The notes beneath the pieces were generated by a model. The model saw nothing but the letters and a program-made list of their open reading frames with translations. It made no database searches and was not told the origin of the DNA. From the IMG/VR virus record IMGVR_UViG_3300045988_156427: a stretch of 64,000 bases of DNA; one strand, given 5' to 3'. Position 1 is the stretch's first letter. Every line of letters starts with the position of its first letter. Source of the DNA: a virus. Lineage: Duplodnaviria > Heunggongvirae > Uroviricota > Caudoviricetes. The position numbers and the translations under genes were made by a program. Of the stretch, positions 2,421 to 61,179 are shown one piece after another.

Positions 2421-2494
2421 GTCTCTTATGCAACATAACCGGTTGAGAAGTTACTTTGCATACCATTACCTCCTGACAACGTAGGAGGGAACTT

Positions 2495-18800: not shown

Positions 18801-21800
18801 TGACACCGTAGATGAGCATGCACAGGATATGCTTTATGACTTCGTTGCCGCCGGGCGCGTAGCCAGCGCAATGGATTCCGATTCCCATCGCAAAGAGGCG
18901 GCGCGTCGCCGGGTATTGTCGGAGTATTCAGATACCGGTACCGAAAAAGCAGAGAAGTATCCGTACTTTGAGGATATGGGCTTCGATAGTGTGATCGCTG
19001 ACGAAGGTCACAACTACCGCAATAGCTATAAAAATGGTCGCGAAGCGTCACAACTGGCCTATCTGCCCACCAGCGCGGTGGCGCAATCGGCGCGAGATAT
19101 GGCAATTAAAAACGCGTACCTGATGAAAAAGAATGGCGGGCGCGGGCCGGTTCTCCTGACTGCAACGCCAGTCGTTAACACCCCGATCGATGCATACAAC
19201 ATGCTTTCTCATGTTCTGCCGAAGGAATACTGGCAGAACATGGGGATCTACGGTCCTGATGACTTCGTTAAATTCTTCGGCAAGACCAGGCTGGAAACGG
19301 TGCAGAAAATCAGCGGTGAAGTTGAAGAAAAAATGGCGCTGGTGGGCTTTGAAAACCTTGATGCGCTGCGCGGTATATTCCATCGCTGGGTAACGCTTAA
19401 AACGGCGGAAGACGTTAAGGATACCGTGGAGATCCCGGAGCTGGACGAACACCAGCAGGATGCACCACTTACTGAAGAACAACTGGCGGCGTATGAAGAA
19501 TTGCGTCAGCAGGCGGAAGCGGCGGCAAAAGCCAACAATGGCGTTACGACCTCGGTCAATGAAGACGGCGTGATTGAGCACGAGAAAGCCCGTCCGATCT
19601 TCTCAATAATCAGGGATATGGACCGCGTATGTACTGACATGGACCTGTACTATCGCCGGATCACCTATCGTTTCCTGCCGGAGTACGCCGATGCGGTGCA
19701 GCAGCTGGCGGACAGTTTGCCTAAACAAGCCACCAGCGAAGACGACGACAGTGATGATTCAATCACGCAGCAATCGCAATACTCCCTGATAGATAAGGGC
19801 GAGTTTATTCAGTTGCAGGTTCCGGAAGCGTTCGAGCAGGAAGTGAATAAGCGCCTGGCCAGGTTTGGCATTGACGAACAGACCGTAACTCACCCCGTTA
19901 CGCCGAAATACGCGAAGCTGATCGCCACGCTGAAGGAGTTTTTCCCGGAAGGTAAGCAAATCATCTTCACCGATGAAAAAACGCAGCACCAGAAGCTCAA
20001 GCGCATTATCTGCAATGCTCTAAACCTTGAACCTTCAAAGGTGGGGATCCTGAATGCTCAGACGGTTGCCGAGGCAGGTAAAACCGGTAAGAAACTGAAA
20101 GCGGTTAAACCGCCGAAAGAGCTACCGGATGAACCAACAGATGCACAGATAGCGAAATACAACGAGCAAATGGCTCTGTATGACGCCTATATCGCGCAGC
20201 AAAATGAAATGTCGTTGGGCGGTCTGGAAAAGATTGCAGCCGACTTCCAGGAGGGCCGGACTCCGATCATCATCTGCAACAAAAAGGCAGAGGTGGGTAT
20301 CAACCTGCATCGAGGAACGACTGACATCCATCATCTGACGTTGCCATGGACACCAGCCAGTATCGCACAGCGTAACGGTCGCGGTGCTCGAGTTGGCTCC
20401 AACCGTGCAAGCGTTCGCGTTCACTACTACTGCGGCAAGGGGTCTTTCGATGAATACCGATTGAAGACGCTGAAGCGTAAAGCAGGCTGGATCTCCGATA
20501 TCCTCCGTTCAGATAAGTCGGAAATGGAGAACGCCGACGCCAATGACATGATCGAAATGCAGATGTATACCGCGAAGGATGACGGCGAACGTCTGGCAAT
20601 GATGCAGGTTCAAATGGATAAGGCGAAAGCTGCGAAACGCGCTCGCCAGAAAGAACAGGCTACTATCGACCTTCAGAATTACATCAAGGCGCAGCACGCA
20701 GCTGGCGAGGATGTGGAGGTACTTACCGCTGAATTGGAGCGAAGCAAAGCGGAACTTGAAAAGACCACCGCCGAGGTAGCTAAATTCAAACAGGTGGTAA
20801 TGGCCAAAGCAGCTGATAACGCAGACTGGAAAGCCCGCTGGGGTAGCGTCCATCACACAGACCGTATGTTGTTAGCACAGTATCGCGCGTCGTTGAAAAG
20901 CGCCATTCAGCGCAAGGCTAATATCTCTCAGGCCATCTCCCGCTATGAGAAATTATTGAACCGTACTCAGAAGGCCGCGACGGATATCAAACGCCTGCGC
21001 CCGCTGGTGGAGGATGCAATAAATAAAGGCATTCTGGATGTTGATCCTGATCTGGTTAACCATGCGAATGAGTTCCTTGTTATCGGCGATCGCTCATGGC
21101 GTGTAGGCCAATACTATGATTGTGCCGGTGATATCGTTCGCATTAAGTCGCTGGACTTCGACAGCCAGCGCGCAGACGTGGAGATCATCTTTACCTTCAA
21201 AGGCACCAAATCGGGTAACTGGGATGTGAAGACGCTGGATAAACAGGTTGATGTAACTCCCGATGAAGATGCTGTTATGCAGAAAATCAGTGGTGGCGTC
21301 TCCATCGCCGGGATTAACGACATCATTTCCTGTGACGATTTCTACCGTTTCCAGCAGCGCGGCATGATCAAAATCACTGACTCATACGGCGTTCAGACTA
21401 CAGAGTCAGGCTATAGCATCGATTTTGTTGGTACCTATACGGACCCACTGAAGCATGCGGTTTACCCGGATCGCCGTGACGGCGCGCTGAAGTCGTCAAT
21501 TGCAAAATGGGTGCTTGGTATGATGTCGGAAGGGAATAACCGCCAGATCCGTTCGGCAGAAACATTCCTGGTTGAATTGTTTGGCTCCAATTATGGCGAT
21601 GTAATCGCGTCATACGGAGATACGCTATCCCCTGAAGCAATTCAGGAGAAAATAGCGGATGCGATCGCCAGAATGCCGGAAAAAACAAGCCAGGGGGCTA
21701 CTCGTAACGGGGATTCTGAACTTGAAGTCACCAATGCCATTTTCGGTACCAATGAGTTCCGGGGGTCAGATTATGAGATCACCACAGCACAGTTTGGCAC

Positions 21801-22614: not shown

Positions 22615-22647
22615 CAGGAGCGCCCGGTTCGCCGGGCGTCGCATAAT

Positions 22648-23088
22648 ATGGCCACACTATCTGATACAATAAAACCGAATAAAACATATCTTGAGGCGGT
22701 ACTCCGTACAGCGTTGTTAGGAAAGACAGAAGACGAATACGTTGATTTCTTCCTGTCAGGGCTACGCGGGCGATTACTGAAAAATCCCCGCCTGTACCGC
22801 AGCTATGGTCCATACTGGCCGGAAATTAAAAAATTATTACTGGAGCGCGGTTATGGTAATTTCGGTCGTCTCGTTGACCGTGACGTTCGCAAAATTTACC
22901 GTTATGACCGCCCGGCGCTAACACTCATAGCCGCGACGCTCTACAGCCAGGAGCGTTTTGATAATGGTCAGATATACTCAGCCTGGCATTTACTGCCAGT
23001 GCCTGAAGAAGTTGACGACCAGGACTATGAGTTTGAGTCTTACGATTTGGAAGTTGAAGCCTTGGCACAGGCTGGAGAGAAAACTTGA
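22648..23088 (+). CDS. ulx: Ulx (gene upstream of lxc)
   Basis: 146 aa between darB and lxc; positional call. Confidence 0.5.
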   Translation: MATLSDTIKPNKTYLEAVLRTALLGKTEDEYVDFFLSGLRGRLLKNPRLYRSYGPYWPEIKKLLLERGYGNFGRLVDRDVRKIYRYDRPALTLIAATLYSQERFDNGQIYSAWHLLPVPEEVDDQDYEFESYDLEVEALAQAGEKT

Positions 23089-23333
23089 AAAAGCGATACT
23101 ACACAGTAAAGCATGGGACGCTACGAGCATTACAAGAGTTTGCTGACAAGCATAACGTTGAGGTGCGCAGGGAAGGGGGAAGTAAAGCTCTGCGCATGTA
23201 CCGTCCGGACGGAAAATGGCGGACGGTCGTCGATTTCAAAACTAACAGCGTTCCCCAGGGCGTCCGCGACCGGGCATTCGAGGAATGGGAGCAGATCATC
23301 ATAGATAACGCATTGCTCCTGAATGCTGATTAA
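23085..23333 (+). CDS. lxc: Lxc/Bof, C1 co-repressor
   Basis: 82 aa, basic; TTG start with GGAGAG RBS overlapping the ulx stop; size and position. Confidence 0.55.
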   Translation: MKKRYYTVKHGTLRALQEFADKHNVEVRREGGSKALRMYRPDGKWRTVVDFKTNSVPQGVRDRAFEEWEQIIIDNALLLNAD

Positions 23334-23337
23334 GAAC

Positions 23338-23366
23338 TCTCCGGCCTAGGGAGATTAGGCCGGAGA
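23338..23366. terminator. Hairpin between convergent lxc and the SIR2-like gene
   Basis: TCTCCGGCCT-N9-AGGCCGGAGA inverted repeat then AT-rich tract. Confidence 0.4.
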
Positions 23367-23374
23367 TAAATATA

Positions 23375-24679
23375 CTATATAAACTTAGATATAATATCGT
23401 GAATCTGTTGTAGCGGGATTTCTTCCATCTTACTCTTAATAAGAGAGCGGTTAGATGCTGTCAGTGAAGGCCATTTTGTTTTCCAGGCTAGATATGCTCG
23501 CCATGAGTAGCCTGTTTCGTAAGGTTTATTCATATAAGTCATTGAGTGTTCAACCGCATGTATGTATTTTTTCTCAAAGTTGGTTCCTTTTACTTCAAAT
23601 AAACTACCGAAATAAATAAGCCATTTTGCCAGGTGTTCATACTGCTCCCATGCGCCAGACTCTTTAGTAAGATCTATTTTTTTATCTATTATATCACAAA
23701 AAACATTTAATACCTTTTCATCATTCCAGCTATATCCAGATGATGAAATGGAGGAAATGATATGATAAAAAGAATCCTCTAACTTCAAGAACTCTATTTT
23801 ATACTCTCTTCCGTTTTTTATTACCGATTTGATTGAGTGCCTCAATTTGTCTTTTATTTTTTTTGCTTCTGGAATTTTCTTGTTAAGTTTTCTAAAGAAA
23901 TCAGACACCTCTGTTTTATCTATAACCCTAATCCCAAAGCAGGAAAAATAGTAATCTTTAATAGGTTGCAATAGTTTTCCTCGGGAAATAAGGAAAATAT
24001 TGGAGGACATTACGTTGTCCCGTGAAAATACCTTATATTCATTTATAATCGCCTTGAGGTTCGCGTCACTTAGAGAATAGCCAAGAATAACAATAGTGTT
24101 TTCATGTAGAACTGTGCTTAGTTTATTTGAAAAGTAAGAATTACCATTTATAAATCTGAAATAATCCTCGCTAGTAACAACCATATCTGATGGGGAGTCT
24201 ATAGAGCCGTGAACATGGTAGACTTTAACCTCACAATTATATTTTGGAATTGGCAGGCCGGGGGTGATTGTACACGTTCGATTCTCTCCAGCCAGTTTTT
24301 CTGCTAACTTGTCATAATTTGTCGTAATTACTTTAAATGTGTTTTCTTTGAAAAAGTCTTGAATATATTCAATTGATGGATCAAGTTCGATTGAGGCTAT
24401 GATTTTCTCAATCTCCTGGTAAATATTTTTCCCCGAAAGTATAAATTTTAGTGCAATAACCTGAGCAGCCTCTTCAAGGCTAAGGTCTTTTGCTTTTCCA
24501 TCAGGAAATAATTCCTCTTTGAGTGAGTCACCATCCTTCAATAAACCGCACAGTTGCTCCAATAAAGATTGCCAACTTGGGGCTTTATCATCAGAAACAG
24601 CCTTTGAAAATCCAGTGCCTGTAAGAAAGCACAGCCTATGTGTAGCTGCTGCATAGGCAATTTCTATATACTCGCTCAT
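23375..24679 (-). CDS. SIR2-like (DHS-like NAD-binding) protein with an uncharacterised ~170-aa C-terminal domain; candidate NADase defence effector
   Basis: 434 aa; GTGFS (aa 21-25), TTNYD (119-123), VHGS (156-159), ILGYSLSD (198-205) fit SIR2-family motifs; AT-rich island; ATG with GGAG RBS. Confidence 0.75.
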   Translation of the reverse strand: MSEYIEIAYAAATHRLCFLTGTGFSKAVSDDKAPSWQSLLEQLCGLLKDGDSLKEELFPDGKAKDLSLEEAAQVIALKFILSGKNIYQEIEKIIASIELDPSIEYIQDFFKENTFKVITTNYDKLAEKLAGENRTCTITPGLPIPKYNCEVKVYHVHGSIDSPSDMVVTSEDYFRFINGNSYFSNKLSTVLHENTIVILGYSLSDANLKAIINEYKVFSRDNVMSSNIFLISRGKLLQPIKDYYFSCFGIRVIDKTEVSDFFRKLNKKIPEAKKIKDKLRHSIKSVIKNGREYKIEFLKLEDSFYHIISSISSSGYSWNDEKVLNVFCDIIDKKIDLTKESGAWEQYEHLAKWLIYFGSLFEVKGTNFEKKYIHAVEHSMTYMNKPYETGYSWRAYLAWKTKWPSLTASNRSLIKSKMEEIPLQQIHDIISKFI

Positions 24680-24735
24680 TACTTACTCCATTTACTTATA
24701 GTTCTACGGAGAAGTATACCCTAATGCATTGACGT

Positions 24736-25377
24736 TTATAGATAATTTCCTTTTCCTGTTAATACTCCCTTAGGCACCTGTTTTTGTGCCAGCGTTTGGG
24801 TTCCGCGAATTATGTTAATCAGAGGGCTTAGTAACGATGGTTCCTGGCGTGCCTCAACTTCTCCAGCCATTGCCCTGATGTAGTCTGCGCTGGCAACGTT
24901 GTTGTATTCCGTCGCAAAGCAACATAGTAACGTCAGAACATGCTCTGTCGTTATTTCGCTCCAGTTGATGTTGAAAAATTCATCGCCTTTTTTATCGTGT
25001 TCGGAATCGAAGATGCTTTGGTGGAGGATGTATTTGCCGGATTCCTTGCGCGGTAACTTGATCGCTTTCTGGCGTTCCAGCTCCTTGTAAATCTGCATTG
25101 CTTCAATCAGTACCGGCCTGCCGTTCATGAAGGGATCGCGCAACCTTACACGCTGGCCAACTCGACCAGTAATAAAGCTGTTTTCCTCTTCCACCAGCAC
25201 GATAAAACCCTTTTCCTCTTTTTCTCGCAATTCGCGCAGCAGCTGGAGTTCCATGTCGCGGCGGCGTTCAGGGTAGCTGGTCCGCTCAGCCATTATCAGC
25301 TCGTTGTTGATCCATGCAGCAGTCATTGACGCCGGTTTGCCGACGCTCATCGAAACAACGCATATTTTCTTATCCAT
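24736..25377 (-). CDS. Hypothetical protein at the position of P1 mat
   Basis: 213 aa from ATG 25377 with AGGGG RBS; backbone GC content; positional only. Confidence 0.4.
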   Translation of the reverse strand: MDKKICVVSMSVGKPASMTAAWINNELIMAERTSYPERRRDMELQLLRELREKEEKGFIVLVEEENSFITGRVGQRVRLRDPFMNGRPVLIEAMQIYKELERQKAIKLPRKESGKYILHQSIFDSEHDKKGDEFFNINWSEITTEHVLTLLCCFATEYNNVASADYIRAMAGEVEARQEPSLLSPLINIIRGTQTLAQKQVPKGVLTGKGNYL

Positions 25378-25565
25378 AGCGCCCCTACAAAAAAGAAAAG
25401 CCACCAGCGGCGGCTTAGCAATACAACTGAAGGTAGCGCCCGGTACTCAGACTGTGCCGTCCATGGAATATTTGAAAAGGGATCCATCCGTACCGGGCGT
25501 GTGATGATTCTGACTCAAGTCACTTGTCAGTTGTCAATCATTTAAGATTAAAAATAATATATTTA

Positions 25566-26126
25566 TTAGTGCATTATGTTTGCCATTTCATAGGCGTCAG
25601 CCAGCAACTCCATCTCTGACTTGTTCAACAAGGTGAATTCTTTCTTGCCTCCTACCACGCCATCGGCATGAACAGGGACCAGCCAGGGGTATTTTTCTCT
25701 TACTTCAGCCGGTGCTGCATGCTGGTGGTGCCATCTGCAAAGGGGCAATTGCTTTTTGTGACAACCCGGCGCGGTACGACCGGAGATATGGTGCAGAGAC
25801 ACCTCTTCAGATATTACTCCATGCATGTAGCAGGCAATGCAGGGGAGAGTGCCAAGAGCATTGGCGATAGTCTGTTCCTCCTCCGTCGGTGTTCGCCCCT
25901 TCAAGCCACGAGATTTTATTTTTACCGCACTTTTCCGCGTTTTGCTGGCTGGTGGGCGCTCTTTCTGTTTAGCGATACGGCGGTCGATAGAATCCCGCAT
26001 TTTCTGATATTGCGATTCTCGCCAGGCGGGGTCAGCCAACTTTTCCCGTTGCCGAGCGATCGCTCGTTCTCTGGCTGCCTTCTGCCACTCGCGGCGCTGT
26101 TCAAGTTTTTGTTCGATTGTTTTCAT
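25566..26126 (-). CDS. ref: Ref, HNH-family recombination enhancement endonuclease
   Basis: 186 aa from internal ATG; basic N-terminus, Cys/His-rich HNH-like core; C1 operator upstream. Confidence 0.7.
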   Translation of the reverse strand: MKTIEQKLEQRREWQKAARERAIARQREKLADPAWRESQYQKMRDSIDRRIAKQKERPPASKTRKSAVKIKSRGLKGRTPTEEEQTIANALGTLPCIACYMHGVISEEVSLHHISGRTAPGCHKKQLPLCRWHHQHAAPAEVREKYPWLVPVHADGVVGGKKEFTLLNKSEMELLADAYEMANIMH

Positions 26127-26131
26127 ATGGC

Positions 26132-26157
26132 AAAAAAAAGGCGGCCTAATGGCCGCC
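26132..26157 (-). terminator. Intrinsic terminator immediately upstream of the ref start codon
   Basis: GGCGGCC-TAAT-GGCCGCC hairpin with an 8-nt U-tract on the minus strand ending 6 nt before the ATG. Confidence 0.6.
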
Positions 26158-26224
26158 AATGATGTCAAGGAGTGAAGTAATGGCAACGTCTTCGTAGTTG
26201 ACAAAAACTGCGGCCAAATTATAG

Positions 26225-26241
26225 CAATCAATTAGAGCAAT
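26225..26241. promoter_or_regulatory. C1 operator-like site upstream of ref
   Basis: ATTAGAGCAAT core (26231-26241). Confidence 0.55.
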
Positions 26242-26373
26242 GGTATATATTTTGTTTCTCGCGAATCACATTTTTTCACTTCAGTACCTGTGTGCTATAC
26301 TCCTTCTTGATTGATTGGATGCGGAATACAAACCCGCTCTTTTGTGCAGCCTGGCTCCTTGCCAGGCTTTTTT

Positions 26374-26685
26374 TTATTTCATCATGGAAGCGGTTAACGC
26401 TTTGGACCTTGCTGAACTGATTGAAAGGGCATTGTTTACCTTACCCAGGAGTTCGCCAAATTCCCCCATCACTCTAGTAAGCCCGCGCCGCGCTTCCTCC
26501 TCCGTTGCATTCATCACAAAATGTTCAGCACTCCGCATGCTTTTAACGGGGAACGCAACAGATATCGAGTCGATATCAGGCATCCTATCGCTCAACTTTA
26601 CGGTGACAATGACAGATGGCGACAGAATATTAGTGCTTACAGACAGCACTACATATTTTCCGTCGATGTTGAAATCCTTTCTCAT
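26374..26685 (-). CDS. Small protein between cre and ref (position of P1 cra)
   Basis: 103 aa, ATG start, C1 operator-like core just upstream. Confidence 0.45.
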   Translation of the reverse strand: MRKDFNIDGKYVVLSVSTNILSPSVIVTVKLSDRMPDIDSISVAFPVKSMRSAEHFVMNATEEEARRGLTRVMGEFGELLGKVNNALSISSARSKALTASMMK

Positions 26686-26701
26686 ATGCCACCATAAATA
26701 T

Positions 26702-26718
26702 CAAAGAATTAGAGCAAT
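26702..26718. promoter_or_regulatory. C1 operator-like site between cre and the 103-aa gene
   Basis: ATTAGAGCAAT core at 26708-26718. Confidence 0.5.
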
Positions 26719-26735
26719 CATTTACGCGTTAATGG

Positions 26736-27767
26736 CTAATTGCCATCTTCCAGCAGGCGCACCATTGCCCCTGTTTCACTATCCAGGTTACGGATATAGT
26801 TCATGACAATATTTACATTGGTCCAGCCACCAGCTTGCATGATCTCCGGTATTGAAACTCCAGCGCGGGCCATATCTCGCGCTGCTCCGACACGGGCACT
26901 GTGTCCAGACCAGGCCAGGTATCTCTGACCAGAGTCATCCTTAGCGCCGTAAATCAATCGATGAGTTGCTTCAAAAATCCCTTCCAGGGCGCGAGTTGAT
27001 AGCTGGCTGGTGGCAGATGGCGCGGCAACACCATTTTTTCTGACCCGGCAAAACAGGTAGTTATTCGGATCATCAGCTACACCAGAGACAGAAATCCATC
27101 GCTCGACCAGTTTAGTTACCCCCAGGCTAAGTGCCTTCTCTACACCTGCGGTGCTAACCAGCGTTTTCGTTCTGCCAATATGGATTAACATTCTCCCACC
27201 GTCAGTACGTGAGATATCTTTAACCCTGATCCTGGCAATTTCTGCTATACGTAGCAGGGTATTATAAGCAATCCCAAGAAATGCCAGATTACGTATATCC
27301 TGGCAGCGATCGCTATTTTCCATGAGTGAACGAACCTGGTCGAAATCAGTGCGTTCGAACGCCAATGCCTGTTTTGCACGTTCACCGGCATCAACGTTTT
27401 CTTTTCGAATCCGCCGCATGACCAGTGAAACAGCATTGCTGTCACTTGGTCGTGGCAGCCCGGACCGACGATGAAGCATGTTTAGCTGGCCCAAATGTTG
27501 CTGGATAGTTTTTACTGCCAGACCGCGCGCCTGAAGATATAGAAGATAATCGCGAACATCTTCAGGTTCTGCGGGAAACCATTTCCGGTTATTCAACTTG
27601 CACCATGCCGCCCACGACCGGCAAACGGACAGAAGCATTTTCCAGGTATGCTCAGAAAACGCCTGGCGATCCCTGAACATGTCCATCAGGTTCTTGCGAA
27701 CCTCATCACTCGTTGCATCGACCGGTAATGCAGGCAAATTTTGGTGTACGGTCAGTAAATTGGACAT
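26736..27767 (-). CDS. cre: Cre site-specific tyrosine recombinase
   Basis: 343 aa; MSNLLTVHQNLPALPVDATSDEVRKNLMDMF... matches Cre along its length as I recall it; cognate loxP 420 bp upstream. Confidence 0.98.
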   Translation of the reverse strand: MSNLLTVHQNLPALPVDATSDEVRKNLMDMFRDRQAFSEHTWKMLLSVCRSWAAWCKLNNRKWFPAEPEDVRDYLLYLQARGLAVKTIQQHLGQLNMLHRRSGLPRPSDSNAVSLVMRRIRKENVDAGERAKQALAFERTDFDQVRSLMENSDRCQDIRNLAFLGIAYNTLLRIAEIARIRVKDISRTDGGRMLIHIGRTKTLVSTAGVEKALSLGVTKLVERWISVSGVADDPNNYLFCRVRKNGVAAPSATSQLSTRALEGIFEATHRLIYGAKDDSGQRYLAWSGHSARVGAARDMARAGVSIPEIMQAGGWTNVNIVMNYIRNLDSETGAMVRLLEDGN

Positions 27768-27774
27768 TTAACAC

Positions 27775-27996
27775 TCAGATAATGGTTTTAAGTAAAGTGT
27801 ACAGGATCGGCTCTGCCTTTACCTGTTTATGGTTCTCGTCATAGAAACGCCAGCGACCGCGCGTGCGTTCTATTTTCTCTTCACCGCGCGATAATGACAG
27901 TTGGCAACTATCACGATCAAACCCTTTTGCCCGCCAGTAACCACGGTTTTTCTCAAGCTCAAGATGAGTGGACACTTTAGCAGTTGAATATCCCAT
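27775..27996 (-). CDS. Hypothetical basic protein between loxP and cre
   Basis: 73-aa ORF with ATG and AGAGGTG RBS, ends 8 nt before cre. Confidence 0.35.
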   Translation of the reverse strand: MGYSTAKVSTHLELEKNRGYWRAKGFDRDSCQLSLSRGEEKIERTRGRWRFYDENHKQVKAEPILYTLLKTII

Positions 27997-28185
27997 TTTT
28001 CACCTCTGATTGATTGGTGGTGCTAAGTGCGCTACGCGAAATCTGTAGGACTAACACCGCCAATTTTTCACAGATTTTACGTAGCGCAACCTTGATCAAA
28101 TGATCAAGTGGTCACTATTTGACCTGCTAAGGTATTGAACTGTATGGATTTACAGGTAAATTGATCATATTCAATAACCCTTAAT

Positions 28186-28219
28186 ATAACTTCGTATAAT
28201 GTATGCTATACGAAGTTAT
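28186..28219. other. loxP recombination site (ATAACTTCGTATA-ATGTATGC-TATACGAAGTTAT)
   Basis: Exact 34-bp loxP: two 13-bp inverted repeats around an 8-bp spacer. Confidence 0.97.
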
Positions 28220-28262
28220 TAGGTCCGAAGAGGAGTTTACGTCCAGCTGCGCATAAAAATCA

Positions 28263-28279
28263 AGAATTATTAGAGCAAT
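28263..28279. promoter_or_regulatory. C1 operator-like site in the immC control region
   Basis: TTATTAGAGCAAT, 15/17 to the reverse-orientation consensus. Confidence 0.6.
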
Positions 28280-28345
28280 AAATTTTGAGAGAAAAACCCC
28301 ACTCCACCAGCCAAAAACTGGATTGTTTTTCATAGTTGTTTGACA

Positions 28346-28362
28346 ATTGCTCTAATAAATTA
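28346..28362. promoter_or_regulatory. C1 operator overlapping a -35-like TTGACA
   Basis: TTGACA-ATTGCTCTAATAAATTA, 16/17 to consensus. Confidence 0.7.
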
Positions 28363-28600
28363 TAGTTTTGCCGCCGTTTCGTAATACGACTTTGGATTCA
28401 CTATTTAATGTGTCTTCAGCGTTGTAGAGCGGCTCAGAAGGAAATGAGCAAACAGGGAAACCTTATACAACGGCATTACAGCTATGCATTGCTCATCTTA
28501 CACACAGCGCAATGTTGTTAGATTACCCCAGCATGGATCATGGGTGAAACAGTAGGTCAGAGCTTCAGGCTCTGTGTTGTCAATACAGTGAGGCATAATT

Positions 28601-28810
28601 ATGGCTTTCATTCCACCAACCATCGACGACGTTAGACATTGCTCTAACGCTTTATCTGTAGACCCCGCCGAAACCGACGCTGCCCGCGCCATTGCTGAAC
28701 ACTACTCAAAGATATCCAATCAGGAGTACCGCATCACCCAAGACGACCTGGATGATCTCACTGACACAATCGAATATCTCATGGCCACTAACCAGCCAGA
28801 CTCACAATAA
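28601..28810 (+). CDS. coi: Coi, C1 inactivator
   Basis: 69 aa acidic protein directly upstream of c1; GTGAGG RBS. Confidence 0.75.
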   Translation: MAFIPPTIDDVRHCSNALSVDPAETDAARAIAEHYSKISNQEYRITQDDLDDLTDTIEYLMATNQPDSQ

Positions 28811-28855
28811 ATGCACTAATAAATCTATTATTTTCGTTGGATCCTTCTATAATGG

Positions 28856-28898
28856 TGGCCAACAACTCCCAGTGTAATCCGCTGTGAGTTGTTGGCCA
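28856..28898 (+). other. 13-bp-stem hairpin between coi and c1
   Basis: TGGCCAACAACTC-N17-GAGTTGTTGGCCA, no U-tract, 22 nt before the c1 start. Confidence 0.5.
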
Positions 28899-28920
28899 TG
28901 TCAATTCTGGAGGAGGATCA

Positions 28921-29772
28921 ATGATAAATTATGTCTACGGCGAACAACTGTACCAGGAGTTCGTCAGCTTCAGGGATCTCTTTCTAAAAAAAGCTGTTGC
29001 ACGCGCCCAACACGTTGATGCCGCCAGCGACGGTCGTCCTGTTCGCCCGGTTGTCGTTCTGCCGTTCAAAGAAACGGACAGCATTCAGGCTGAAATTGAT
29101 AAATGGACTTTAATGGCGCGGGAACTGGAACAGTACCCAGACCTCAATATCCCAAAGACTATTTTATATCCAGTGCCTAACATCCTTCGCGGTGTGCGTA
29201 AGGTTACTACTTATCAGACAGAAGCTGTGAACAGCGTCAACATGACCGCTGGCCGCATTATTCATCTGATTGATAAGGACATTCGCATCCAGAAAAGCGC
29301 GGGGATCAATGAGCACAGTGCGAAATACATAGAGAACCTGGAAGCAACAAAAGAGCTAATGAAGCAGTACCCGGAGGATGAAAAATTCCGTATGCGTGTA
29401 CACGGCTTTAGCGAAACAATGCTGCGCGTCCATTACATTTCCAGTAGCCCTAACTACAATGATGGTAAATCAGTTAGTTACCATGTGCCGCTGTGTGGTG
29501 TGTTTATCTGCGATGAAACTCTCCGTGATGGAATCATCATCAACGGTGAATTCGAGAAAGCAAAATTTAGCCTTTATGACTCTATAGAACCGATCATCTG
29601 CGACCGCTGGCCGCAGGCAAAAATATATCGCCTGGCAGATATTGAAAATGTAAAAAAACAAATTGCCATCACTCGCGAAGAGAAAAAGGTCAAATCAGCC
29701 GCATCAGTTACGCGCAGCCGTAAAACTAAGAAGGGGCAGCCAGTAAACAGCAACCCCGAAAGCGCGCAATAG
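28921..29772 (+). CDS. c1: C1 repressor of lytic functions
   Basis: 283 aa, GGAGGAGG RBS; downstream of coi and beside pacB; operators spread through the window. Confidence 0.85.
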   Translation: MINYVYGEQLYQEFVSFRDLFLKKAVARAQHVDAASDGRPVRPVVVLPFKETDSIQAEIDKWTLMARELEQYPDLNIPKTILYPVPNILRGVRKVTTYQTEAVNSVNMTAGRIIHLIDKDIRIQKSAGINEHSAKYIENLEATKELMKQYPEDEKFRMRVHGFSETMLRVHYISSSPNYNDGKSVSYHVPLCGVFICDETLRDGIIINGEFEKAKFSLYDSIEPIICDRWPQAKIYRLADIENVKKQIAITREEKKVKSAASVTRSRKTKKGQPVNSNPESAQ

Positions 29773-29797
29773 TTTTCCATCCGGCATGGTCAAATTG

Positions 29798-31282
29798 TTA
29801 TTCATTAAGCCATGCCAGAGCTTCATCAACCTGCGCTTCGTCTTCGACGCTAAGCACTTCATCTTGGGGAACATAGTTCGCCAACATAGCGAAACAATAT
29901 GTATCCCAATGGTCCGGTGAGTGCAGGTTGAGTTTTTTCTTCATATCTTCCTTTGACATCACCTTCCATTGACCTGCGGAATTTATCCCTACCGGTATCT
30001 TTGATGCTTCCTCTATAGTCGCAGCCCCCTTATCAAGCCTCATACGCCCTGATTTTACAGCTTCTGCCGCCTGAATATTCGCGAAAGCGCGCATATCGAA
30101 ATAAAGGCTTTTATCTTCACGGCTGTGCATCTTTTTACCCCAGCGGATACGCTGGACGGTAATGCCATAGCGTTCGTACATTAGATCAGCCGTCGATTTC
30201 CCCAAGCCATCGCCATCAATAGCTATGGTTATGTTCGGGAACCGTTCTGGGTTACATTCTGCGAAAATCTTGGCGGCTAACTGCGTTTCTGTAACGTCTG
30301 TGTATTCCAGCATACGATAGTTGATTACACGGCGTTTATTTCGCTGGCCGGACACCATCATGATATTAATAACGGACTTATCTCGTCCTGTGCCACCAGC
30401 AACGTCAACACATGCAACCCAGCCCCATCCTTTGGCAATCTTGACCTTTCGCCGCGTCGCCCGCTCAACCTCATCACGACCAAGAAGAAAGCCATCTTGA
30501 GATTTGGGAAATTCACCACGTACTTTGATCATGTACATGGGGTTATCACGACCGCCATACTCCGCAAGTTTTGCTCGTATAAATTTTGCATCTACAAGCG
30601 GAGATTCTTCACTATTCAGTATTATCGCAGTAAACAATCCATCAGGATTTCCCGGGCGAATAGCTAGTCTGTGGTGTGAATCGTAGAAATAGCCTGAAGG
30701 TCGCGTAGGCTGGGAAAGAAGCAGAATACGGTTATCCTTACCGGTCAGCGCACCTGTTATCACACTGAATGCTTTATCACTTACACCCGACGCTTCGTCG
30801 ATGATATACAAGAGATGATCGGCGTGTTCACCAGCCAACGCCTCCTCATTTCCGGGGCGACAGGACTTTATCAATATTGTCCAAACACCCTTGCCAGTCA
30901 CCTCAAAAAAAGACGTTTCTGTAAGAATGAAATACTTCGACAACCACGGGAATCTGCTAACAGCAGTAGCCCAATTGCTCTTTATGTATTTGAAAATACC
31001 ATCAAGGACTTGCTGTCTTTTGTTAGCGACCAGAATGACGCGAGCGCCGGGGAAAAACATGATGAAGAGTATTGCAATGATACTCGTCATATCCGATTTA
31101 CCAGTACCATGGCCGGAGGTCACACTTGTCCAACTGCCGTCCTGCTGCGTGGACTCAATGATCTCATCCTGCTGCCAGGTTGGTGTCTTCCCAAACAACA
31201 CATCAGCGGCCGCAATCCAGTCATAACGATATAGCGCCACCAGCTCGCGCCAACGTGGGTCCGTTACGCAACTTCTGGCCAT
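29798..31282 (-). CDS. pacB: Terminase large subunit PacB
   Basis: 494 aa; Walker A SGHGTGKS, Walker [14 protein letters not shown]; TAATG overlap with pacA. Confidence 0.85.
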
Positions 31283-56098: not shown

Positions 56099-56384
56099 TA
56101 GCACTCCACCCAGGCGTGCTGAATGTCAGATATAATCGGCATACTCAAATCACTCCTAACGATATGAGTCATCACCAGAAAATCAGGATTAATGCGCCGG
56201 ACTCTTCCCGGCTGTCACACCGAATCGCCAGGATGGTGAATCCCTTTACCCGAGAAACAACAAACGGTGGCTTGCACATTCCGGCTACCTGGTTCGTTGC
56301 CTGAGCTAGGGGCAAGGTTCCCCCCTTTTAACGTCACCAGACCGCTAACGACGCATGTGCCAGACGCCGTGTTACAACCAAATA

Positions 56385-56460
56385 TGGTGGCCCCTACCGG
56401 ACTTGAACCGGTGACCGTGCGATTATGAGTCGCCAGCTCTAACCACTGAGCTAAAGGGCC
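56385..56460 (-). tRNA. tRNA with anticodon CAU (Ile2-lysidine type or Met)
   Basis: 76-nt cloverleaf: acceptor GGCCCTT/AGGGGCC, GCTCAGTGGTTAGAGC D-arm, GGTTCAAGTCC T-arm, encoded CCA. Confidence 0.85.
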
Positions 56461-56463
56461 GGA

Positions 56464-56571
56464 TTACTGTTTCCTGAGTGCTTCTATGACGCCAGCAATA
56501 CCGCCTACAACTATGCCAGCAATGACAACGAGAACAATTGGATGCTTGTCAGCAAAATCCCAGAAGCCCAT
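56464..56571 (-). CDS. 35-aa hydrophobic peptide (third gene of the tci-like cluster)
   Basis: ATG overlaps upstream stop (TGATG); one TM helix; ends 3 nt before the tRNA. Confidence 0.4.
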   Translation of the reverse strand: MGFWDFADKHPIVLVVIAGIVVGGIAGVIEALRKQ

Positions 56572-56735
56572 CACTGATCCTTAGAAGCTGTTTTTAATAT
56601 CGGCCATACCAATGTTACAGCTACTGCTACCAACGCCCCGTCGGATAAAACCGACAGGATTGTGCTGGTGAAATCCACCAGCACAGATAGCACGAGAAAA
56701 ACCAAAGCCAGAATTAGACGTGCTTTTATAACCAT
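56571..56735 (-). CDS. 54-aa hydrophobic peptide (second gene of the tci-like cluster)
   Basis: ATGA overlap with the TerB-like gene stop; one or two TM helices. Confidence 0.4.
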   Translation of the reverse strand: MVIKARLILALVFLVLSVLVDFTSTILSVLSDGALVAVAVTLVWPILKTASKDQ

Positions 56736-57160
56736 CAGATATACTGTTCCAGTGGCAATTGAAGAGCCTGGGCAATTTTCTTCAATTGCTCCTGCTCTTC
56801 TGCCCCAATGCCATCCTGGTCAGCAATATCAATGCATAGGCACAGAACATCTACCGCATCATTAGTTCCAGACACGTCAGCCAGTTCACGTAAAGCCTGG
56901 GCATTCGCTCGGCGCGGCGAGGCTTCATATTGAGCGCGAATATTGGCGCTCATCTGGGCAATTTCACCGGAGAACGGCGCAAAGGCAGGAAGTGCTGCAA
57001 TGGTTTTTTCCAACACTGCAATTTCTTTCGCATCGCAGGTGCCGTCAGAGTATGCAATGGAATATGCGCCCCAGACAGTCGCTTCCACCGCATCACGGTT
57101 TTCCATCTTCTTGACTCCGCCAGCCGCTTTGCGGAATTTCTTTTTGAGAATGCCGAGCAT
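56735..57160 (-). CDS. tciA: TerB-like tellurite-resistance-domain protein
   Basis: 141 aa; TerB-like helical domain with acidic C-terminus; TGAGG RBS. Confidence 0.6.
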   Translation of the reverse strand: MLGILKKKFRKAAGGVKKMENRDAVEATVWGAYSIAYSDGTCDAKEIAVLEKTIAALPAFAPFSGEIAQMSANIRAQYEASPRRANAQALRELADVSGTNDAVDVLCLCIDIADQDGIGAEEQEQLKKIAQALQLPLEQYI

Positions 57161-57301
57161 TTATTAACCTCATTACTGGTTGGGAAATAAGGTTGCGGTG
57201 CCGGGTGCTTCCCGGTGTCCTTTGGCTGGTTATCCACCATGGACGGGGAAATAAGGAGAAATAATGGACAGATATAACCATTTCCCCGCGTGCGCTTAGC
57301 C

Positions 57302-58086
57302 GCATTCACCGCAACGGAAAGAGCATTCCTGGTGGACCTGTAGATTGGGATATGAACCCGTTACAGGAGAATGCTCTTACCTGTTACGTGCTCCGTTTCG
57401 TGGAGCTAACGGCGGGTGATCGGGCCGCACCAGACTGGACTTATTTCAGCGTTATGCTCATGCCAGAGAATCAAACTGTGATGGTCGGTGCTGAACTCCG
57501 ACACAGGGTTGTAGCAAGCCCCGCAAAGCGCGCACTACTGTAGTTGCGGCACATCAGCCTGTGCATTCACCACAATGTTGAGAACACTGGTTGTCACGCT
57601 GCAACGCAACATTTATTCGTAGATTGGGATATGACCCCGTTACGCCAGTGTTCTCAACGTTGTAGTGCCGGTTACGGTTCCGGCCAGGCCTCTTCCTCAA
57701 CGGGGTGTTCTCCATACGGACTACCGTTTATTGGTCGTTCCTGCGGTTTATGTTGTGAAGCCAGATGCTTATCTTCTGGTTGCTTCAAAGAGCTGCACTT
57801 CATCACAACGGTAAGAGCACTCGATGCATTTAAGCCAAGCCCCATAAGGGAGAATGCCCTTACCTGTTGTGTTGTGATGACCGGTGCTGATCTCCGGCTT
57901 GCGGTTATTTCAGACTCTCACGGGCGTTTAATTGCCCCGCCGAACAGCTCTTTTCCGCAATAGCTGCAATGTCTTTCGCGCATCAGCCTGCGCATTCATC
58001 ACAACGGTAAGGGTACTTCGTAGGGATTCGAACCCTCTGCCAAGCTCGGCGATCTCCGACGTCGCAAAATACCCTTACCTGTTGTG
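57302..58086. repeat. Family of four long imperfect stem-loop repeats between tciA and the tRNA genes
   Basis: Related 18-25-nt arms pair at 57303-57328/57366-57392, 57571-57590/57644-57666, 57801-57818/57853-57875, 57997-58016/58066-58086; two loops share GTAGATTGGGATATGA(A/C)CCCGTTAC, one holds a T-arm-like GGGTTCGAATCCC. Confidence 0.5.
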
Positions 58087-58087
58087 C

Positions 58088-58163
58088 TGGTGCCGATTAA
58101 CGGACTCGAACCGCTGACATCCTGCTTACAAGGCAGGCGCTCTACCAACTGAGCTAAACCGGC
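58088..58163 (-). tRNA. tRNA-Thr (anticodon UGU)
   Basis: 76-nt cloverleaf GCCGGTTTAGCTCAGTTGGTAGAGC...CTTGTAA...GGTTCGAGTCC...CCA. Confidence 0.9.
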
Positions 58164-58165
58164 AT

Positions 58166-58241
58166 TGGCGATGGTGGATGGATTTGAACCATCGACCCGT
58201 TGATTAACAGTCAACCGCTCTAACCGCTGAGCTACACCATC
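58166..58241 (-). tRNA. tRNA-Asn (anticodon GUU)
   Basis: 76-nt cloverleaf GATGGTGTAGCTCAGCGGTTAGAGC...CTGTTAA...GGTTCAAATCC...GCCA. Confidence 0.9.
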
Positions 58242-58907
58242 ACTTGCCGGGTACGTCTCCGGCGAGGGCTTCCACCTCCGTATGCTTTTCGGCGCACCGC
58301 GCCCTGGCTGCAATTCGGTAACAGGGGATGCACAACCCTGGCTTCCAGCGTGATTAGCGCTTTCAGCATGACGGGATATACCCGTAAATTCGTGGAACTG
58401 TACCCAAAGTGCTGTTAAGCACCGCTGTTACGCTGAAAAGAAAACGCAACAGGAAAGGACGCTGACCAACAGATGGCCCCTTCTCGTTCATCTGGTTAAT
58501 CACACCAGCGCCCTTACCTGTTGTGCCTCCCCGTTCCCTAATACACAGACGGGGACACTCTGCGGTCGATTTTTTGACGGGGGACGACTCATACCCCGTG
58601 GCATCTGGCTTCTTAGGCCGCTACCATCATCAGATCATCGTTTGCATTTACTTTAATGGTCAGTTTCTAAACCGCCGCAAAGTCGCTAACCATGACGAAA
58701 ACCCTGAAAAAAAACGCCCACCCGAAGATGGGCAAACTGGAAGCTCGTAACGCACTTCGGAGTTGCCACTTAGGCGCATGGTCAACCTGGCAACTCGGTG
58801 GTTTGTCTGGGAGGACTAGGCCCAGCCATGCTTACCGCCGCGCCTGTCGCGGCTAACAGCTAAATCGCTCTATAAATCACGATTCATTGAGGCGATATTA
58901 CACTAAT

Positions 58908-58924
58908 AAATTTATTAGAGCAAT
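58908..58924. promoter_or_regulatory. C1 operator, perfect 17-mer (AAATTTATTAGAGCAAT), oriented toward the tRNA-tci-ban operon
   Basis: Exact reverse complement of the consensus; overlaps the dmt stop codon. Confidence 0.75.
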
Positions 58925-61179
58925 ATACCCAAAACGTCATGAGCTACACCTCGAGTGTCCCCCTTACAAGACACAGAACGTCTGGCAAAAAGAGGTTCCA
59001 CTCTGAAGCCACTGTCATGATAAAGCTCTCTGATGTTTGGCGCGCCACTGTTAGTAATGAGAACCTTTGCACCTCGACGATGAGCATCCGTCAACAGAGA
59101 CACCAGGCGTTTTTGCTCTTCAAACTTAAAGTCATGACCGGAATAGTTCGTGAATCCCTCTGTATTTGGAAGCGGTTCATACGGCGGATCGCAAAAGATG
59201 ACATCTCCTTCTCCGGCAGCTTCAATCACCGCTGCAAAATCACCGCATACAAACTCAGACCGCCCTTCCGCACCGAGGAAGGCTTCCATCTCCTGTAATG
59301 GGAAATACGGAGTTTTATACTTCCCATAACCGACATTGAACTCACCGGCCTGGTTGTAACGCGTCAATCCGTTAAAACAATGTCGGTTCAGGAACAAAAA
59401 CGCCGCTGCGCGATGTAAATCATCATAGACTTGTTTGTTAAACGCATTCCGTACTGCCAGGTATCCTTCCTGTGTGTTGTAGTCCTGGAAGAAACGATGT
59501 GCCAGAGTGATAAGTGAATGCGCCTCGCGTTGCAGAGTCTTGTAAAAGTTAATCAGGTCAGCATTCACATCATTTAGCAGATTTTCCTGGTATCCGGCAT
59601 TCATGAAGACAGCTCCGCCACCAACGAAAGGTTCAATCAGGCGCTTCCCTTCTGGCAAATAGCGAAAGATTTGTTCCAGAACACCAAATTTTCCACCAGC
59701 CCATTTGAATATGGACCGTTCGAATTCTGCCGCTGGTTTAACTTTTCGCTCTTTTGTTTCACTTCCTTCTTTCTGCCGACATACGGACTTAGTAATCCGA
59801 TCGCCAATCCAGCGCATTACTGGTATTGCCATACTATTGCCGATCGCTTTGTAACGCGGTCCGTCAGCTGCAAGCATCGCGGCCTCTTCTTCGCTTAAAT
59901 CTGGATAGTGATTGCGAAGATATGCCAGTTCATCTGAATTAACTTTTTTACGCTTTTCCGTCGGGATCAACGTATGCCCATCAGGAAAACCTTGCAGCCT
60001 TTCACATTCGACAGGGGTAAGACGGCGGACAGCTACTTCTGCGTTTCTTACTTCATAGCAAACAGCTGTTGGATTTTTAGCCATTAGAGATGGTGAAGTA
60101 TTCTTAGTTGCAGCATGTTGTGTACCGCTCATACGCTCAGGAAAAGCCAATGTAACAAGATGCTCATGGCTTTCTTGCTCACGTGCCCGCAATGTACCAT
60201 GCCCTTCTGACCAAAAACCTGCTCCTGTGCTGCTAAAAACGGCAAGGTCAGTGGCATCTTTAAAATCTCTTGCCTTTACTGTCGATGCGGTTTCATCGTC
60301 AATATATTCCCCAAATGCTGCCATCCTGAAAGCGTTTACGGCTTTCGTCGATTTCATACCGGGTGGCATGTCAGCGTGTAGGCATGGATTTAGGCTTTCG
60401 CCACTGATTGCAGCGCCATTTGCAATAATGGCGGAAGCGATTTCCTTCTTTTTTCGGCTCGGCGCAATATTCCGGCGCACGCCTTTGAACTCAAAAAGTA
60501 CCGTTGCGGGATCGAGGTCTGTTCGAGCACTTGCGACAACAAACACGCGTCGGCGTCGTTGTGCCACTCCGAAGTATTGGGCATCAAGGATTCTCCAGGC
60601 CACCTTTCGCTGCGGTCCATAAATACAACCACACTGCGGCCACTTTGGAGCATGGCAACCGGTTTTGCCATCCCACCGCCAGAACGCGTTACTTTTTCCT
60701 GATTCAGGTCGATCACCTGGTTCAAATGGCGCATCTTCTCCAGCCAATCCGGCAAGGAAACATCCGAAGGCGTTATCTGCCGATGACAGGACTCCTGGGA
60801 CATTTTCCCAGACGATAACTGTCGGTTTGAGGAAGGACTCAGACCGTTTGTCGTCAATTGCATTTGCAAGCTCCACATACTTCAAAGTTAGCGCGCCGCG
60901 TTCATCATCAAGCCCACCACGTAAGCCCGCGATACTGAATGCCTGACAAGGCGTACCCCCGACGAGCACATCAGGGGATTCGATTTCCCCAGCCAGGACT
61001 TTTTTGGCAAGTTTTGTCATGTCGCCAAGGTTGGCGACATGGGGCCAGCGGTGCGCAAGAACGGCAGATGGAAAAGACTCGATTTCAGCAAACCACACCG
61101 GACGCATACCCAACGGTTCCCAGGCAATACTCGCGGCTTCAATTCCACTGCAAACAGATCCATAGCACAGCTCTTTCAC
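58915..61179 (-). CDS. dmt: Dmt, fused C5-cytosine (Dcm-like) and N6-adenine (Dam-like) DNA methyltransferase
   Basis: 754 aa; [11 protein letters not shown] and ENV motifs N-terminal, FCDPPYEP motif C-terminal; GTG start overlapping hrdC stop. Confidence 0.85.

Follow-up and report, generated by a model that had tools for sequence, protein, structure and literature searches.

Repeated, covarying RNA modules in the ban operon of a P1-like phage, some with an anticodon-arm-like hairpin, and their relatives in Enterobacterales prophages

We analyzed a stretch of 64,000 nucleotides (nt) of viral DNA (IMG/VR record IMGVR_UViG_3300045988_156427; hereinafter, the window), with a focus on positions 57302-58086, for which a preliminary description had reported four long stem-loops with related arms between the tciA gene and a group of tRNA genes. 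The DNA is that of a P1-like phage, in which 57302-58086 forms the untranslated middle part of the ban operon, on the minus strand, from tRNA-Thr to tciA. The stem-loops of this segment, together with a fifth one found farther upstream in the operon, are modules of an RNA family with a conserved, covarying structure, which has no counterpart in Rfam 15 and is undescribed in RNA annotation, a conclusion that is strongly supported by the analysis described below. As for what these modules do, the best reading, to which we assign a probability of about one half, is that they are tRNA-derived structured RNAs that would be cut from phage operon transcripts and would present a mimic of a CAU anticodon arm.

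The segment 57161-58087 is 99.6% identical to its counterpart in the P1-like phage JL22 and ~99% identical to P1 over the parts in common (megablast). The minus-strand order in the P1 record is ban operators and promoters (controlled by C1), a "dicF-like region", tRNA-Asn, tRNA-Thr, the region corresponding to 57302-58086, tciA, tciB, tciC, trnI and ban. Given this gene order, and because the only tRNA genes of the window (Met, Thr and Asn by ARAGORN, and the same three by the Rfam tRNA model at E-values up to 10) are all on the minus strand, the locus can be placed inside a minus-strand operon.

All four stem-loops of the preliminary description are present, with stems of 18-25 base pairs (bp) and fold z-scores from -5.9 to -8.3; the left arms were located at 57305, 57566, 57799 and 57995 and the right arms at 57373, 57645, 57856 and 58071 (repeat search; families D1, D4, I1, I4 and I9). 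The set was incomplete, however: a further right arm at 58510 (repeat family D4) belongs to a fifth unit, outside 57302-58086 and upstream of the tRNA genes, and the functional strand of all units is the minus strand. The right-arm 15-mer has six matches with up to 3 mismatches in the window, compared with 1.07 expected and with 0 of 100 shuffled sequences reaching six; five of these matches lie within 57374-58525, and the one found elsewhere has 3 mismatches. All five units (U1 to U5; Table 1) fold as a long closing helix around one or two hairpins, the minus strand being more stable in each case, and the sequence of the outer helix itself is conserved (ACAACAGGUAAGRGC...GCYCUUACC-GUUGUG). 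In U1 and U2 (class I), this helix encloses the apical motif ACGGG-xUCAUAx-xCC-AAUC, in the form AC-GGG-UUCAUAU-CCC-AAUC and AC-GGG-GUCAUAU-CCC-AAUC, respectively; U3, U4 and U5 (class II) have the outer helix in common with U1 and U2, and the apical motif was not found in them. The 25-nt block that had been noticed in two of the loops corresponds to 57340-57364 and 57619-57643 (repeat family D6; 96% identity) and resembles an anticodon loop (xUCAUAx), not a T-loop. The T-arm-like element that had been noticed in a third loop is a part of U4 (GGGATTCGAACCC, 58023-58035), the unit that adjoins tRNA-Thr, its outer stem beginning 2 nt past the 3' A of the CCA.

Table 1. Features of the ban operon region of the window. 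R1 is the covariance model built from lambdoid-phage units; scores and z-scores are given as minus strand / plus strand; MFE, minimum free energy.
Feature	Position	Strand	R1 (bits)	Fold z-score	Description and evidence
tciA	56735..57160	-			TerB family; first protein gene downstream of the units; Pfam TerB E 2.1e-6; phrog_632 E 7e-62; P1 annotation
STnc100-like structured segment	57194..57313	-			between U1 and the tciA start; RF02076 39.2 bits, E 2.1e-6
U1, class I	57307..57390	-	42.3 (E 7.5e-11 in 2.7-kb search) / 12.2	-6.33 / -3.2	~22-bp outer stem with one bulged A, 6-bp P2, no P3 hairpin; MFE -35.0 kcal/mol
Anticodon-arm-like motif of U1	57343..57361	-			minus-strand reading ACGGGUUCAUAUCCCAAUC
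Hairpin A3	57485..57501	-			UCGG-AGUUCAGCA-CCGA; repeat search
Hairpin B2	57549..57564	-			GCACA-GGCUGA-UGUGC; repeat search; directly 3' of U2 after GGUGAAU
U2, class I	57568..57667	-	38.5 / 22.2	-8.32 / -6.2	23-bp outer stem, P3 hairpin GUUGCGUUGCAGCGUGACAAC; MFE -47.9 kcal/mol
Anticodon-arm-like motif of U2	57622..57640	-			minus-strand reading ACGGGGUCAUAUCCCAAUC
Hairpin A2	57761..57779	-			CCAGA-AGAUAAGCA-UCUGG; repeat search
U3, class II	57802..57873	-	19.0 / 12.1	-5.97 / -3.5	common outer stem, other cargo: CCC-UUAU-GGG hairpin
Spacer between U4 and U3	57870..58006	-			136 bp, holds hairpins B1 and A1; megablast
Hairpin A1	57881..57897	-			CCGG-AGAUCAGCA-CCGG; repeat families D5, D7; just 5' of U3
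Hairpin B1	57978..57993	-			GCGCA-GGCUGA-UGCGC; repeat family D2; directly 3' of U4 after GAUGAAU
U4, class II	57998..58088	-	21.1 / 19.4 (filters off)	-5.85 / -4.7	cargo: small hairpin and T-arm-like AGGG-UUCGAAU-CCCU
tRNA-Thr (UGU)	58088..58163	-			ARAGORN; Rfam tRNA 72.9 bits
tRNA-Asn (GUU)	58166..58241	-			ARAGORN; Rfam tRNA 74.5 bits
U5, class II	58443..58527	-	21.1 / 16.9 (filters off)	-4.96 / -4.6	~200 nt upstream of tRNA-Asn
P1-marked "dicF-like region"	58697-58798	-			P1 record; terminator 58715-58734 (-)

The evidence that the units form a family comes from a covariance model (R1) that was built from 12 lambdoid-phage units only and included no P1-type units. A search of the whole window with R1 detected U1 (E 1.8e-9), U2 and U3, all on the minus strand, at the scores given in Table 1; with the filters off, in a 2.7-kb search, U4 and U5 were found as well, the E-values of all five being 3e-4 or lower. 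The minus-strand score exceeds the plus-strand score for 5 of the 5 units, and all matches of the model in the window lie within 57307-58527. Covariance-model scans had been proposed as a check in the preliminary description: R1 recovers all five units, and Rfam 15, searched with permissive thresholds over this region of the window and the related loci, gave only tRNAs, a sub-threshold match to STnc100 and chance microRNA-like hairpins.

A BLAST search with the unit of phage mEp460 revealed relatives in SfV, SfII, SfIV, ST64B, cdtI, Stx2 and Stx2c phages as well as in Klebsiella, Citrobacter and Pantoea phages, and the core ACGGG-xUCAUAx-xCC-AAUC, to which the motif of U1 belongs, has at least 120 matches in viral contigs, with 89 distinct units among the matches listed. 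The common architecture consists of an outer helix (P1), with 21-25 bp in the units of P1-like and lambdoid phages but 6-7 bp in those of the Klebsiella type, followed inward by a helix of up to 7 bp (P2) that flanks the core motif, a stem of three GGG/CCC pairs with a 7-nt loop, and a usual but variable second hairpin (P3). A MAFFT alignment of the diverse units (A1) came out with the wrong structure and was superseded by a motif-anchored alignment guided by the covariance model. In the final version (alignment A4), which comprises 52 distinct units, many of them close relatives, with helix P1 aligned under the guidance of the model and P2 anchored on the motif by hand, 91.2% of the cells at paired positions hold a standard pair, compared with 74.2 ± 0.6% in shuffled alignments and 40-51% when the partners are slid relative to each other. 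Furthermore, 27 of the 31 pairs change on both sides (19.0 ± 1.6 in shuffles), and the covariation score is 0.44 compared with 0.17; none of the 500 shuffles reached the observed value for any of these three measures. In the model, which has 21 aligned pairs, the stems (helix 1, that is, the outer stem together with P2) are 90% paired across the family. The comparison across relatives for compensatory changes, also proposed in the preliminary description, thus came out in favor of structured RNAs, and this part of the original proposal is now strongly supported, the better folding of the minus strand included.

Across the family, G·U cells outnumber A·C cells (114 and 59, respectively, with 27 of the A·C cells at a single fixed position of P2), and this excess points to an RNA transcribed from the minus strand of the window. 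The class II units show less variation within P1-like phages, yet they too have compensating variants, for example, CACAAC/GUUGCG and CAUAAC/GUUACG in U5, and a compensating variant of U3 is found in relatives.

The distribution of the family is wide within one bacterial order. The 371-nt leader segment of mEp460 that contains the unit has matches in 2799 of 5426, or about half, of the complete Escherichia coli genomes, and no RNA annotation was present at the match in any of the 25 E. coli matches listed. With one genome per species searched, units confirmed by the model were identified in at least 19 named genera of Enterobacterales, including Escherichia, Shigella, Klebsiella, Citrobacter, Enterobacter, Yersinia, Erwinia, Pantoea, Kosakonia, Leclercia and Raoultella; the unit has been lost from the CPS-53 prophage of strain K-12. 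Two odd cases involve a metagenome-assembled genome (MAG) of Acidobacteriaceae and a probable contaminant. The Acidobacteriaceae MAG, from a bog (L267, 2553-2622, minus strand), has a 34-bit match to the unit model with compensating stems of its own, and several Saccharibacteria MAGs (L243, L268 and L299) contain ACGGGATCATAACCCAATC or a close variant in a P2-like helix; these matches may be distant relatives or chance. Full-text literature searches did not find the motif sequences, and searches for the biology of the tRNAs of the P1 ban operon, for P1 transcriptomes and for tRNA-like decoys gave nothing relevant beyond the two studies cited below.

The apical hairpin is a close copy of the anticodon arm of the initiator tRNA, tRNA-fMet. 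The tRNA-fMet sequence used for the comparison is 100% identical in 5426 of 5426 E. coli genomes, where it is annotated as tRNA-Met and is present in a median of four copies. Its anticodon arm, UCGGG-CUCAUAA-CCCGA, compares with ACGGG-CUCAUAA-CCCAA in the lambdoid units (UCGGGCUCAUAACCCGA and ACGGGCUCAUAACCCAA, respectively), so that the lambdoid apical hairpin is an exact match to CGGGCUCAUAACCC, that is, three G-C pairs and the loop CUCAUAA; the arms of the P1 units are ACGGG-UUCAUAU-CCCAA and ACGGG-GUCAUAU-CCCAA. When the loop was left free in the search, real units showed CTCATAA 103 times, GTCATAT 85 times, TTCATAT 78 times and a few other xTCATAx or xTCATTx loops (these counts are not independent events); C34 is changed in two units, and one loop reads CCCATCC. 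Because positions 33-37 are nearly fixed whereas positions 32 and 38 vary, the loop resembles a real anticodon loop, and the 7-nt loop with U33 and a purine at 37 that characterizes tRNAs is found, as xUCAUAx, in nearly all real units.

A second link to tRNAs is provided by the short-stem units of Klebsiella-type lambdoid phages, where the gene order is Q, terminator, tRNA-Asn (with or without tRNA-Phe, tRNA-Thr and tRNA-Arg), unit, terminator, holin gene. In all seven loci checked, the unit starts 6-7 nt past the last tRNA, on the same strand, and is 67 nt long followed by RCCA; both array and unit belong to the late leader and, in the records that annotate Q, follow this gene, and the short-stem units are bracketed by intrinsic terminators. 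The closing stem of these units is 6-7 bp long, with RCCA after it, and their place in the array is that of the next tRNA. The Klebsiella-type 3' end is GGCC-A/G-CCA, a subgroup with a GGGCC stem ends with GCCU, GCCC or AAAU, and the long-stem units, including those of P1 and lambdoid phages with their 18-25-bp closing stems and thus all five of the window, have no CCA. All differ from tRNAs in that they have no D arm or T-loop and in that P2 forms a 7-bp extension below a disrupted pair. The arm lengths are compatible with a tRNA-like L shape (~12-14 bp for P1 plus P3, and ~12 layers for P2 plus the GGG stem). Thus, the units are tRNA-like but are not tRNAs; judging by the acceptor-like stem, the RCCA end and the array position of the shortest members, the family appears to be derived from tRNA.

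In mEp460-type phages, the gene that comes first on the left side of the repressor gene is preceded, at a distance of ~90-170 nt, by the long-stem unit. The downstream gene varies (YfdP-like, RdgC, HD-domain protein or Xis-like in this setting, holins or TciA elsewhere), so the unit is not the leader of one particular gene, and a gene-specific leader or riboswitch was rejected on this ground.

These features can be combined into a tentative scheme. The modules would be transcribed together with the tRNAs and the downstream genes, and the long helices would serve as processing stalks, comparable to those around rRNAs and in phage T7 mRNAs, that are cut by RNase III; in the short-stem units, RNase P and 3' trimming would mature the CCA-ended form, and both routes would yield a similar small RNA with a three-way junction. 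Cutting would separate the tRNAs, the spacers and the tciA-ban mRNA and free a stable RNA of ~60-90 nt, the invariant CAU loop of which could be read by a factor that normally reads the anticodon arm of tRNA-Met or tRNA-fMet. The repeated stems also act as recombination substrates that reshuffle the tRNA cargo. The outer stems of the five units provide the helix of ~20 bp or more, mostly Watson-Crick, that is expected of an RNase III site in a transcript. A role as processing signals for the tRNA operon, suggested in the preliminary description, is plausible, given that the units flank tRNAs and that their short-stem relatives occupy the end of an array in the manner of one more tRNA.

Several known systems resemble parts of this scheme. 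RNase III stalks are found in the stems of rRNA operons, the R-sites of phage T7, and the N-leader and sib sites of phage lambda; like the units, they are long, near-perfect helices with conserved single mismatches or bulges that flank structured cargo in a polycistronic transcript, but the units combine a stem sequence conserved among unrelated phages with an invariant cargo loop, neither of which is needed at the known sites. The stable RNAs species 1 and 2 of phage T4 (rnaC and rnaD), which are of unknown function, have tRNA-like 3' ends and lie in the T4 tRNA cluster; they are similar to the units, as proposed here, in being small structured RNAs that are encoded and transcribed together with phage tRNAs, whereas T4 is virulent, and the units are set apart by their several copies, their long closing stems and the CAU-loop mimic. 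The operator of the E. coli thrS gene is an anticodon-arm mimic in an untranslated region that regulates its own downstream gene; it likewise copies the anticodon loop of one tRNA within an untranslated region but is gene-specific, whereas the genes downstream of the units vary. Finally, the C4 antisense RNA of P1 and P7 is processed by RNase P and is also a small structured P1-type RNA matured from a longer transcript, although its locus (immI) and its role (control of ant) are both different.

That the copy of the initiator-tRNA loop is invariant suggests a specific partner, such as methionyl-tRNA synthetase (MetRS), the P site of the 30S subunit, a modification enzyme or a tRNA-directed nuclease, and offers a means of testing whether tRNA mimics, beyond replacement tRNAs, are used by phages against tRNA-targeting systems. 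Several considerations weigh against the reading of the units as tRNA-derived, processed modules. The roles of RNase III and RNase P are argued from architecture, and a pure processing role would need no invariant apical loop. Neither ARAGORN nor the Rfam tRNA model (RF00005) calls any unit, whether in the window or among the Klebsiella-type short units, the D arm and T-loop being absent, and the CCA end is confined to the Klebsiella-type subgroup. Because U3-U5 have no CAU loop, one function may not cover all five units. The alignment A4, having been fitted in part by a covariance model and then anchored by hand, favors pairing, and many of its sequences are close relatives. Finally, knock-down of plp, upl, trnT, tciABC and trnI by CRISPR interference did not affect P1 plaque formation on the laboratory host (PMC10695390); this absence of a phenotype fits an accessory role, without demonstrating one.

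Among the alternatives, a decoy function is specific enough to be spelled out, although we consider it unlikely. Under this possibility, the units are an undescribed class of noncoding RNA of Enterobacterales temperate phages, and the RNA released from early or late operon transcripts, by processing of the tRNA or rRNA type, mimics the anticodon arm of the initiator tRNA and soaks up or inhibits a host factor that attacks tRNA-fMet or tRNA-Met during infection. A VapC-type PIN nuclease, which cuts tRNA-fMet at A38/C39, is an example of such a factor; a different toxin or defense enzyme directed at tRNA would be another. The decoy would then be an RNA-based counter-defense encoded beside the replacement tRNAs of the phage and complementing them. 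The 14 contiguous nucleotides that match the anticodon stem-loop of tRNA-fMet, including the three G-C pairs, are compatible with this possibility, as are the anticodon-like pattern of constancy and variation in the loop, the co-location and co-orientation of the units with phage tRNA arrays, the dispensability of the region on a laboratory host, which is usual for accessory anti-defense genes, and the restriction of the family to Enterobacterales prophages. Against it, U3-U5 have no mimic, positions 32 and 38 of the P1-type loops are not those of tRNA-fMet, and no association with defense or toxin genes was seen, although no search was aimed at one; moreover, the same features could be explained equally well if the units bound MetRS, the 30S P site or a modification enzyme. 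The suggestion of the preliminary description that the region is an anti-defense locus accordingly remains speculative.

It is also doubtful that the units are purely cis-acting leader elements that block Rho loading, stabilize mRNA ends or mediate antitermination, with no functional RNA being released. Their positions do fit this idea, in that they are found in the leaders of long operons, namely the early operon in mEp460-type phages, the operon that follows Q in phages of the Klebsiella type, and the ban operon, the untranslated head of which spans 1.7 kb; the entire mEp460 leader is highly structured (z = -4.9), and internal promoter-like sites are absent, no sigma-70-like promoter passing the scan on either strand of 56300-59000. 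A stable structure alone, however, leaves the invariant loop sequence and the internal loop unexplained, and within tRNA arrays the short form with the CCA end has the appearance of a separate gene. As for antitermination specifically, the units show no similarity to the HK022 region in which the put sites lie, and the boxA-like stretch CGCUCUUUUUA upstream of the units varies freely among relatives.

Recombination at the units is evident. The reference P1 lacks exactly 57799-57994 (196 bp, comprising U3 and the spacer), from one repeated left arm to the next, and SJ46 and two other loci (L093 and L123) carry hybrid units that join the 5' half of U2 to the 3' half of U1. Given this unit-bounded indel and these hybrids, the units recombine with one another, and the sequence comparisons indicate that the repeats drive deletions and fusions. 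The tRNA content also varies, with an additional tRNA-Ser-like gene in phages P7 and D6 and an additional tRNA-Tyr in Ro157. The late leader of the lambdoid phage JLK-2012 (L310, 1020-2960) has the order Q, tRNA-Asn, tRNA-Thr, tRNA-Gly, tciA, tciB, STnc100 (107 bits) and an esterase gene, which identifies the tRNA-tciAB block of the P1 ban operon as a cassette common to lambdoid late leaders. The presence of repeated stems accounts for the reshuffling of tRNA cargo between the P1-like and the lambdoid phages. All of these observations could be expected if the units were debris, that is, decaying tRNA pseudogenes or recombination scars left as P1-like and lambdoid phages repeatedly exchanged tRNA cassettes, and so could the T-arm-like hairpin in U4 that is not part of a full tRNA. 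Nevertheless, the compensatory changes at 27 of 31 pairs and the near-invariant loop across 19 genera indicate purifying selection on the structure, and the compensating variants extend to class II, so that debris is quite improbable. The earlier notion of remnants of tRNA-gene exchange thus holds insofar as the units mediate recombination and tRNA content differs, but the units are selected elements rather than decaying scars, as follows from the conserved loop and the compensatory changes in the stems.

An element acting at the DNA level, with the inverted repeats being either palindromes bound by a protein or the ends of a miniature transposable element, is very unlikely. Conservation of the arms concerns their sequence and not only their pairing, and the units are repeated and recombine, as such an element might; but the strand asymmetry (the G·U excess and the greater stability of the minus strand) points to RNA, loops of 40-60 nt disfavor cruciform extrusion, the orientation of the units is always that of the flanking operon, target-site duplications were not observed, and the model matches in the 64-kb window are confined to one locus, as is the right arm apart from one match with 3 mismatches.

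The least tenable reading is that the plus-strand open reading frames (ORFs) upl (57352-57543) and plp (57544-57963) are real genes and the repeats are coding repeats. The coding potential of the region, which the preliminary description had found unconvincing, needed testing because the P1 record annotates Upl and Plp in it, with predicted sigma-70 promoters; the Upl ORF is intact in both P1 and the window, and Upl matches two PHROG families. These two short families, however, span only Upl itself and carry no assigned function, Upl has no Pfam match, Plp has neither a Pfam nor a PHROG match, the 196-bp indel, not being a multiple of 3, replaces the entire C-terminus of Plp, the P1 version of plp runs antisense into the tRNA-Thr gene, the JL22 annotation sets different ORF boundaries, the annotated promoters find no counterpart in the scan, and the variation tracks base-pairing, not codon position. 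The results favor a non-coding region, and upl and plp, which have been copied into many phage and plasmid records, are probably not genes but annotation artifacts over structured RNA encoded on the other strand.

Other candidates were considered and rejected. Miniature inverted-repeat transposable elements (MITE) and repeats of the REP or ERIC type do not fit, the copies being not dispersed but located at equivalent operon-leader or tRNA-array positions in the same orientation. The only match of YrlA/Y RNA (RF02553), at 58104-58221 (25.6 bits, gathering score 69), overlaps real tRNAs, with none on the units, and C4 antisense RNA (RF01695) has no match at E-values up to 10 in 56300-58950. For an antiterminator like the two-hairpin elements putL and putR of HK022, R1 finds nothing above 14 bits in HK022 21000-31000, a result that concerns homology only and not function; by the gene order of the record, this is the early region between erf and gene O, which we take to be where the put sites lie. 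A boxA/nut reading of the stretch just 5' of the lambdoid units was discarded for the variability described above.

STnc100, one of the STnc100 / PasD prophage small RNAs, is found in the same genomic setting as the units, both in the JLK-2012 late leader and beside U1. It has been described as a prophage-encoded small RNA, and regions of the late-leader type carry prophage small RNAs (bioRxiv 10.64898/2026.05.13.724894). The five units themselves do not match RF02076, and the match at 57194-57313, which covers model positions 31-147 of 206, is below the gathering score of 47 bits, compared with 107 bits for a true member. This segment, in the 5' leader of tciA right after U1, contains the GGUGAAU that also trails each unit.

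At the head of the ban operon, the terminator at 58715-58734 (minus strand; an 8-bp stem followed by U8) is the sole strong intrinsic terminator and ends the "dicF-like region", where the Rfam DicF model has no match at E-values up to 10. As this terminator is upstream of the tRNA genes, transcription must read through a terminator to reach them.

In phages D6 and P7, the 87-nt tRNA-Ser(UGA)-like gene (2138-2224, minus strand) is located roughly at the position of the U1 region of P1 and is followed by a long-stem unit of its own; the D6 authors remarked that tRNAscan-SE assigned no amino acid to this gene. Immediately 5' of the lambdoid units (mEp460 2440-2490, minus strand, and the equivalent position in many lambdoid loci) is a GC-rich GGTACC hairpin followed by U5-7, the U-run of which pairs with GGAGAA 3' of the unit and thereby extends the outer helix; this hairpin is terminator-like, but has a 19-nt loop and is not called a terminator by a simple scan. 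Elsewhere in mEp460 (4980-5137, plus strand), matches to isrK (67 bits) and C4 antisense RNA lie beside an antirepressor gene, an arrangement resembling the P1 immI-type module.

The U4-U3 spacer has ~98% identity to its counterparts in lambdoid phages, namely mEp460 (locus 2501-2637, in the early-left leader), Stx2c phages and IME207, the latter recorded from Klebsiella pneumoniae, and is more conserved than the stems of the units. It contains a 25-codon minus-strand ORF (MRRLMRERHCSYCGKELFGGAIKRP); this ORF and a second one of 31 amino acids on the minus strand of the spacers have poor ribosome-binding-site spacing, and the 31-residue product has no family match. The small hairpins of the spacers fall into two types. 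Hairpins B1 and B2 (GCRCA-GGCUGA-UGYGC) show a directly visible compensatory difference (GCGCA/UGCGC compared with GCACA/UGUGC), and the three copies of type A likewise have compensating differences among them.

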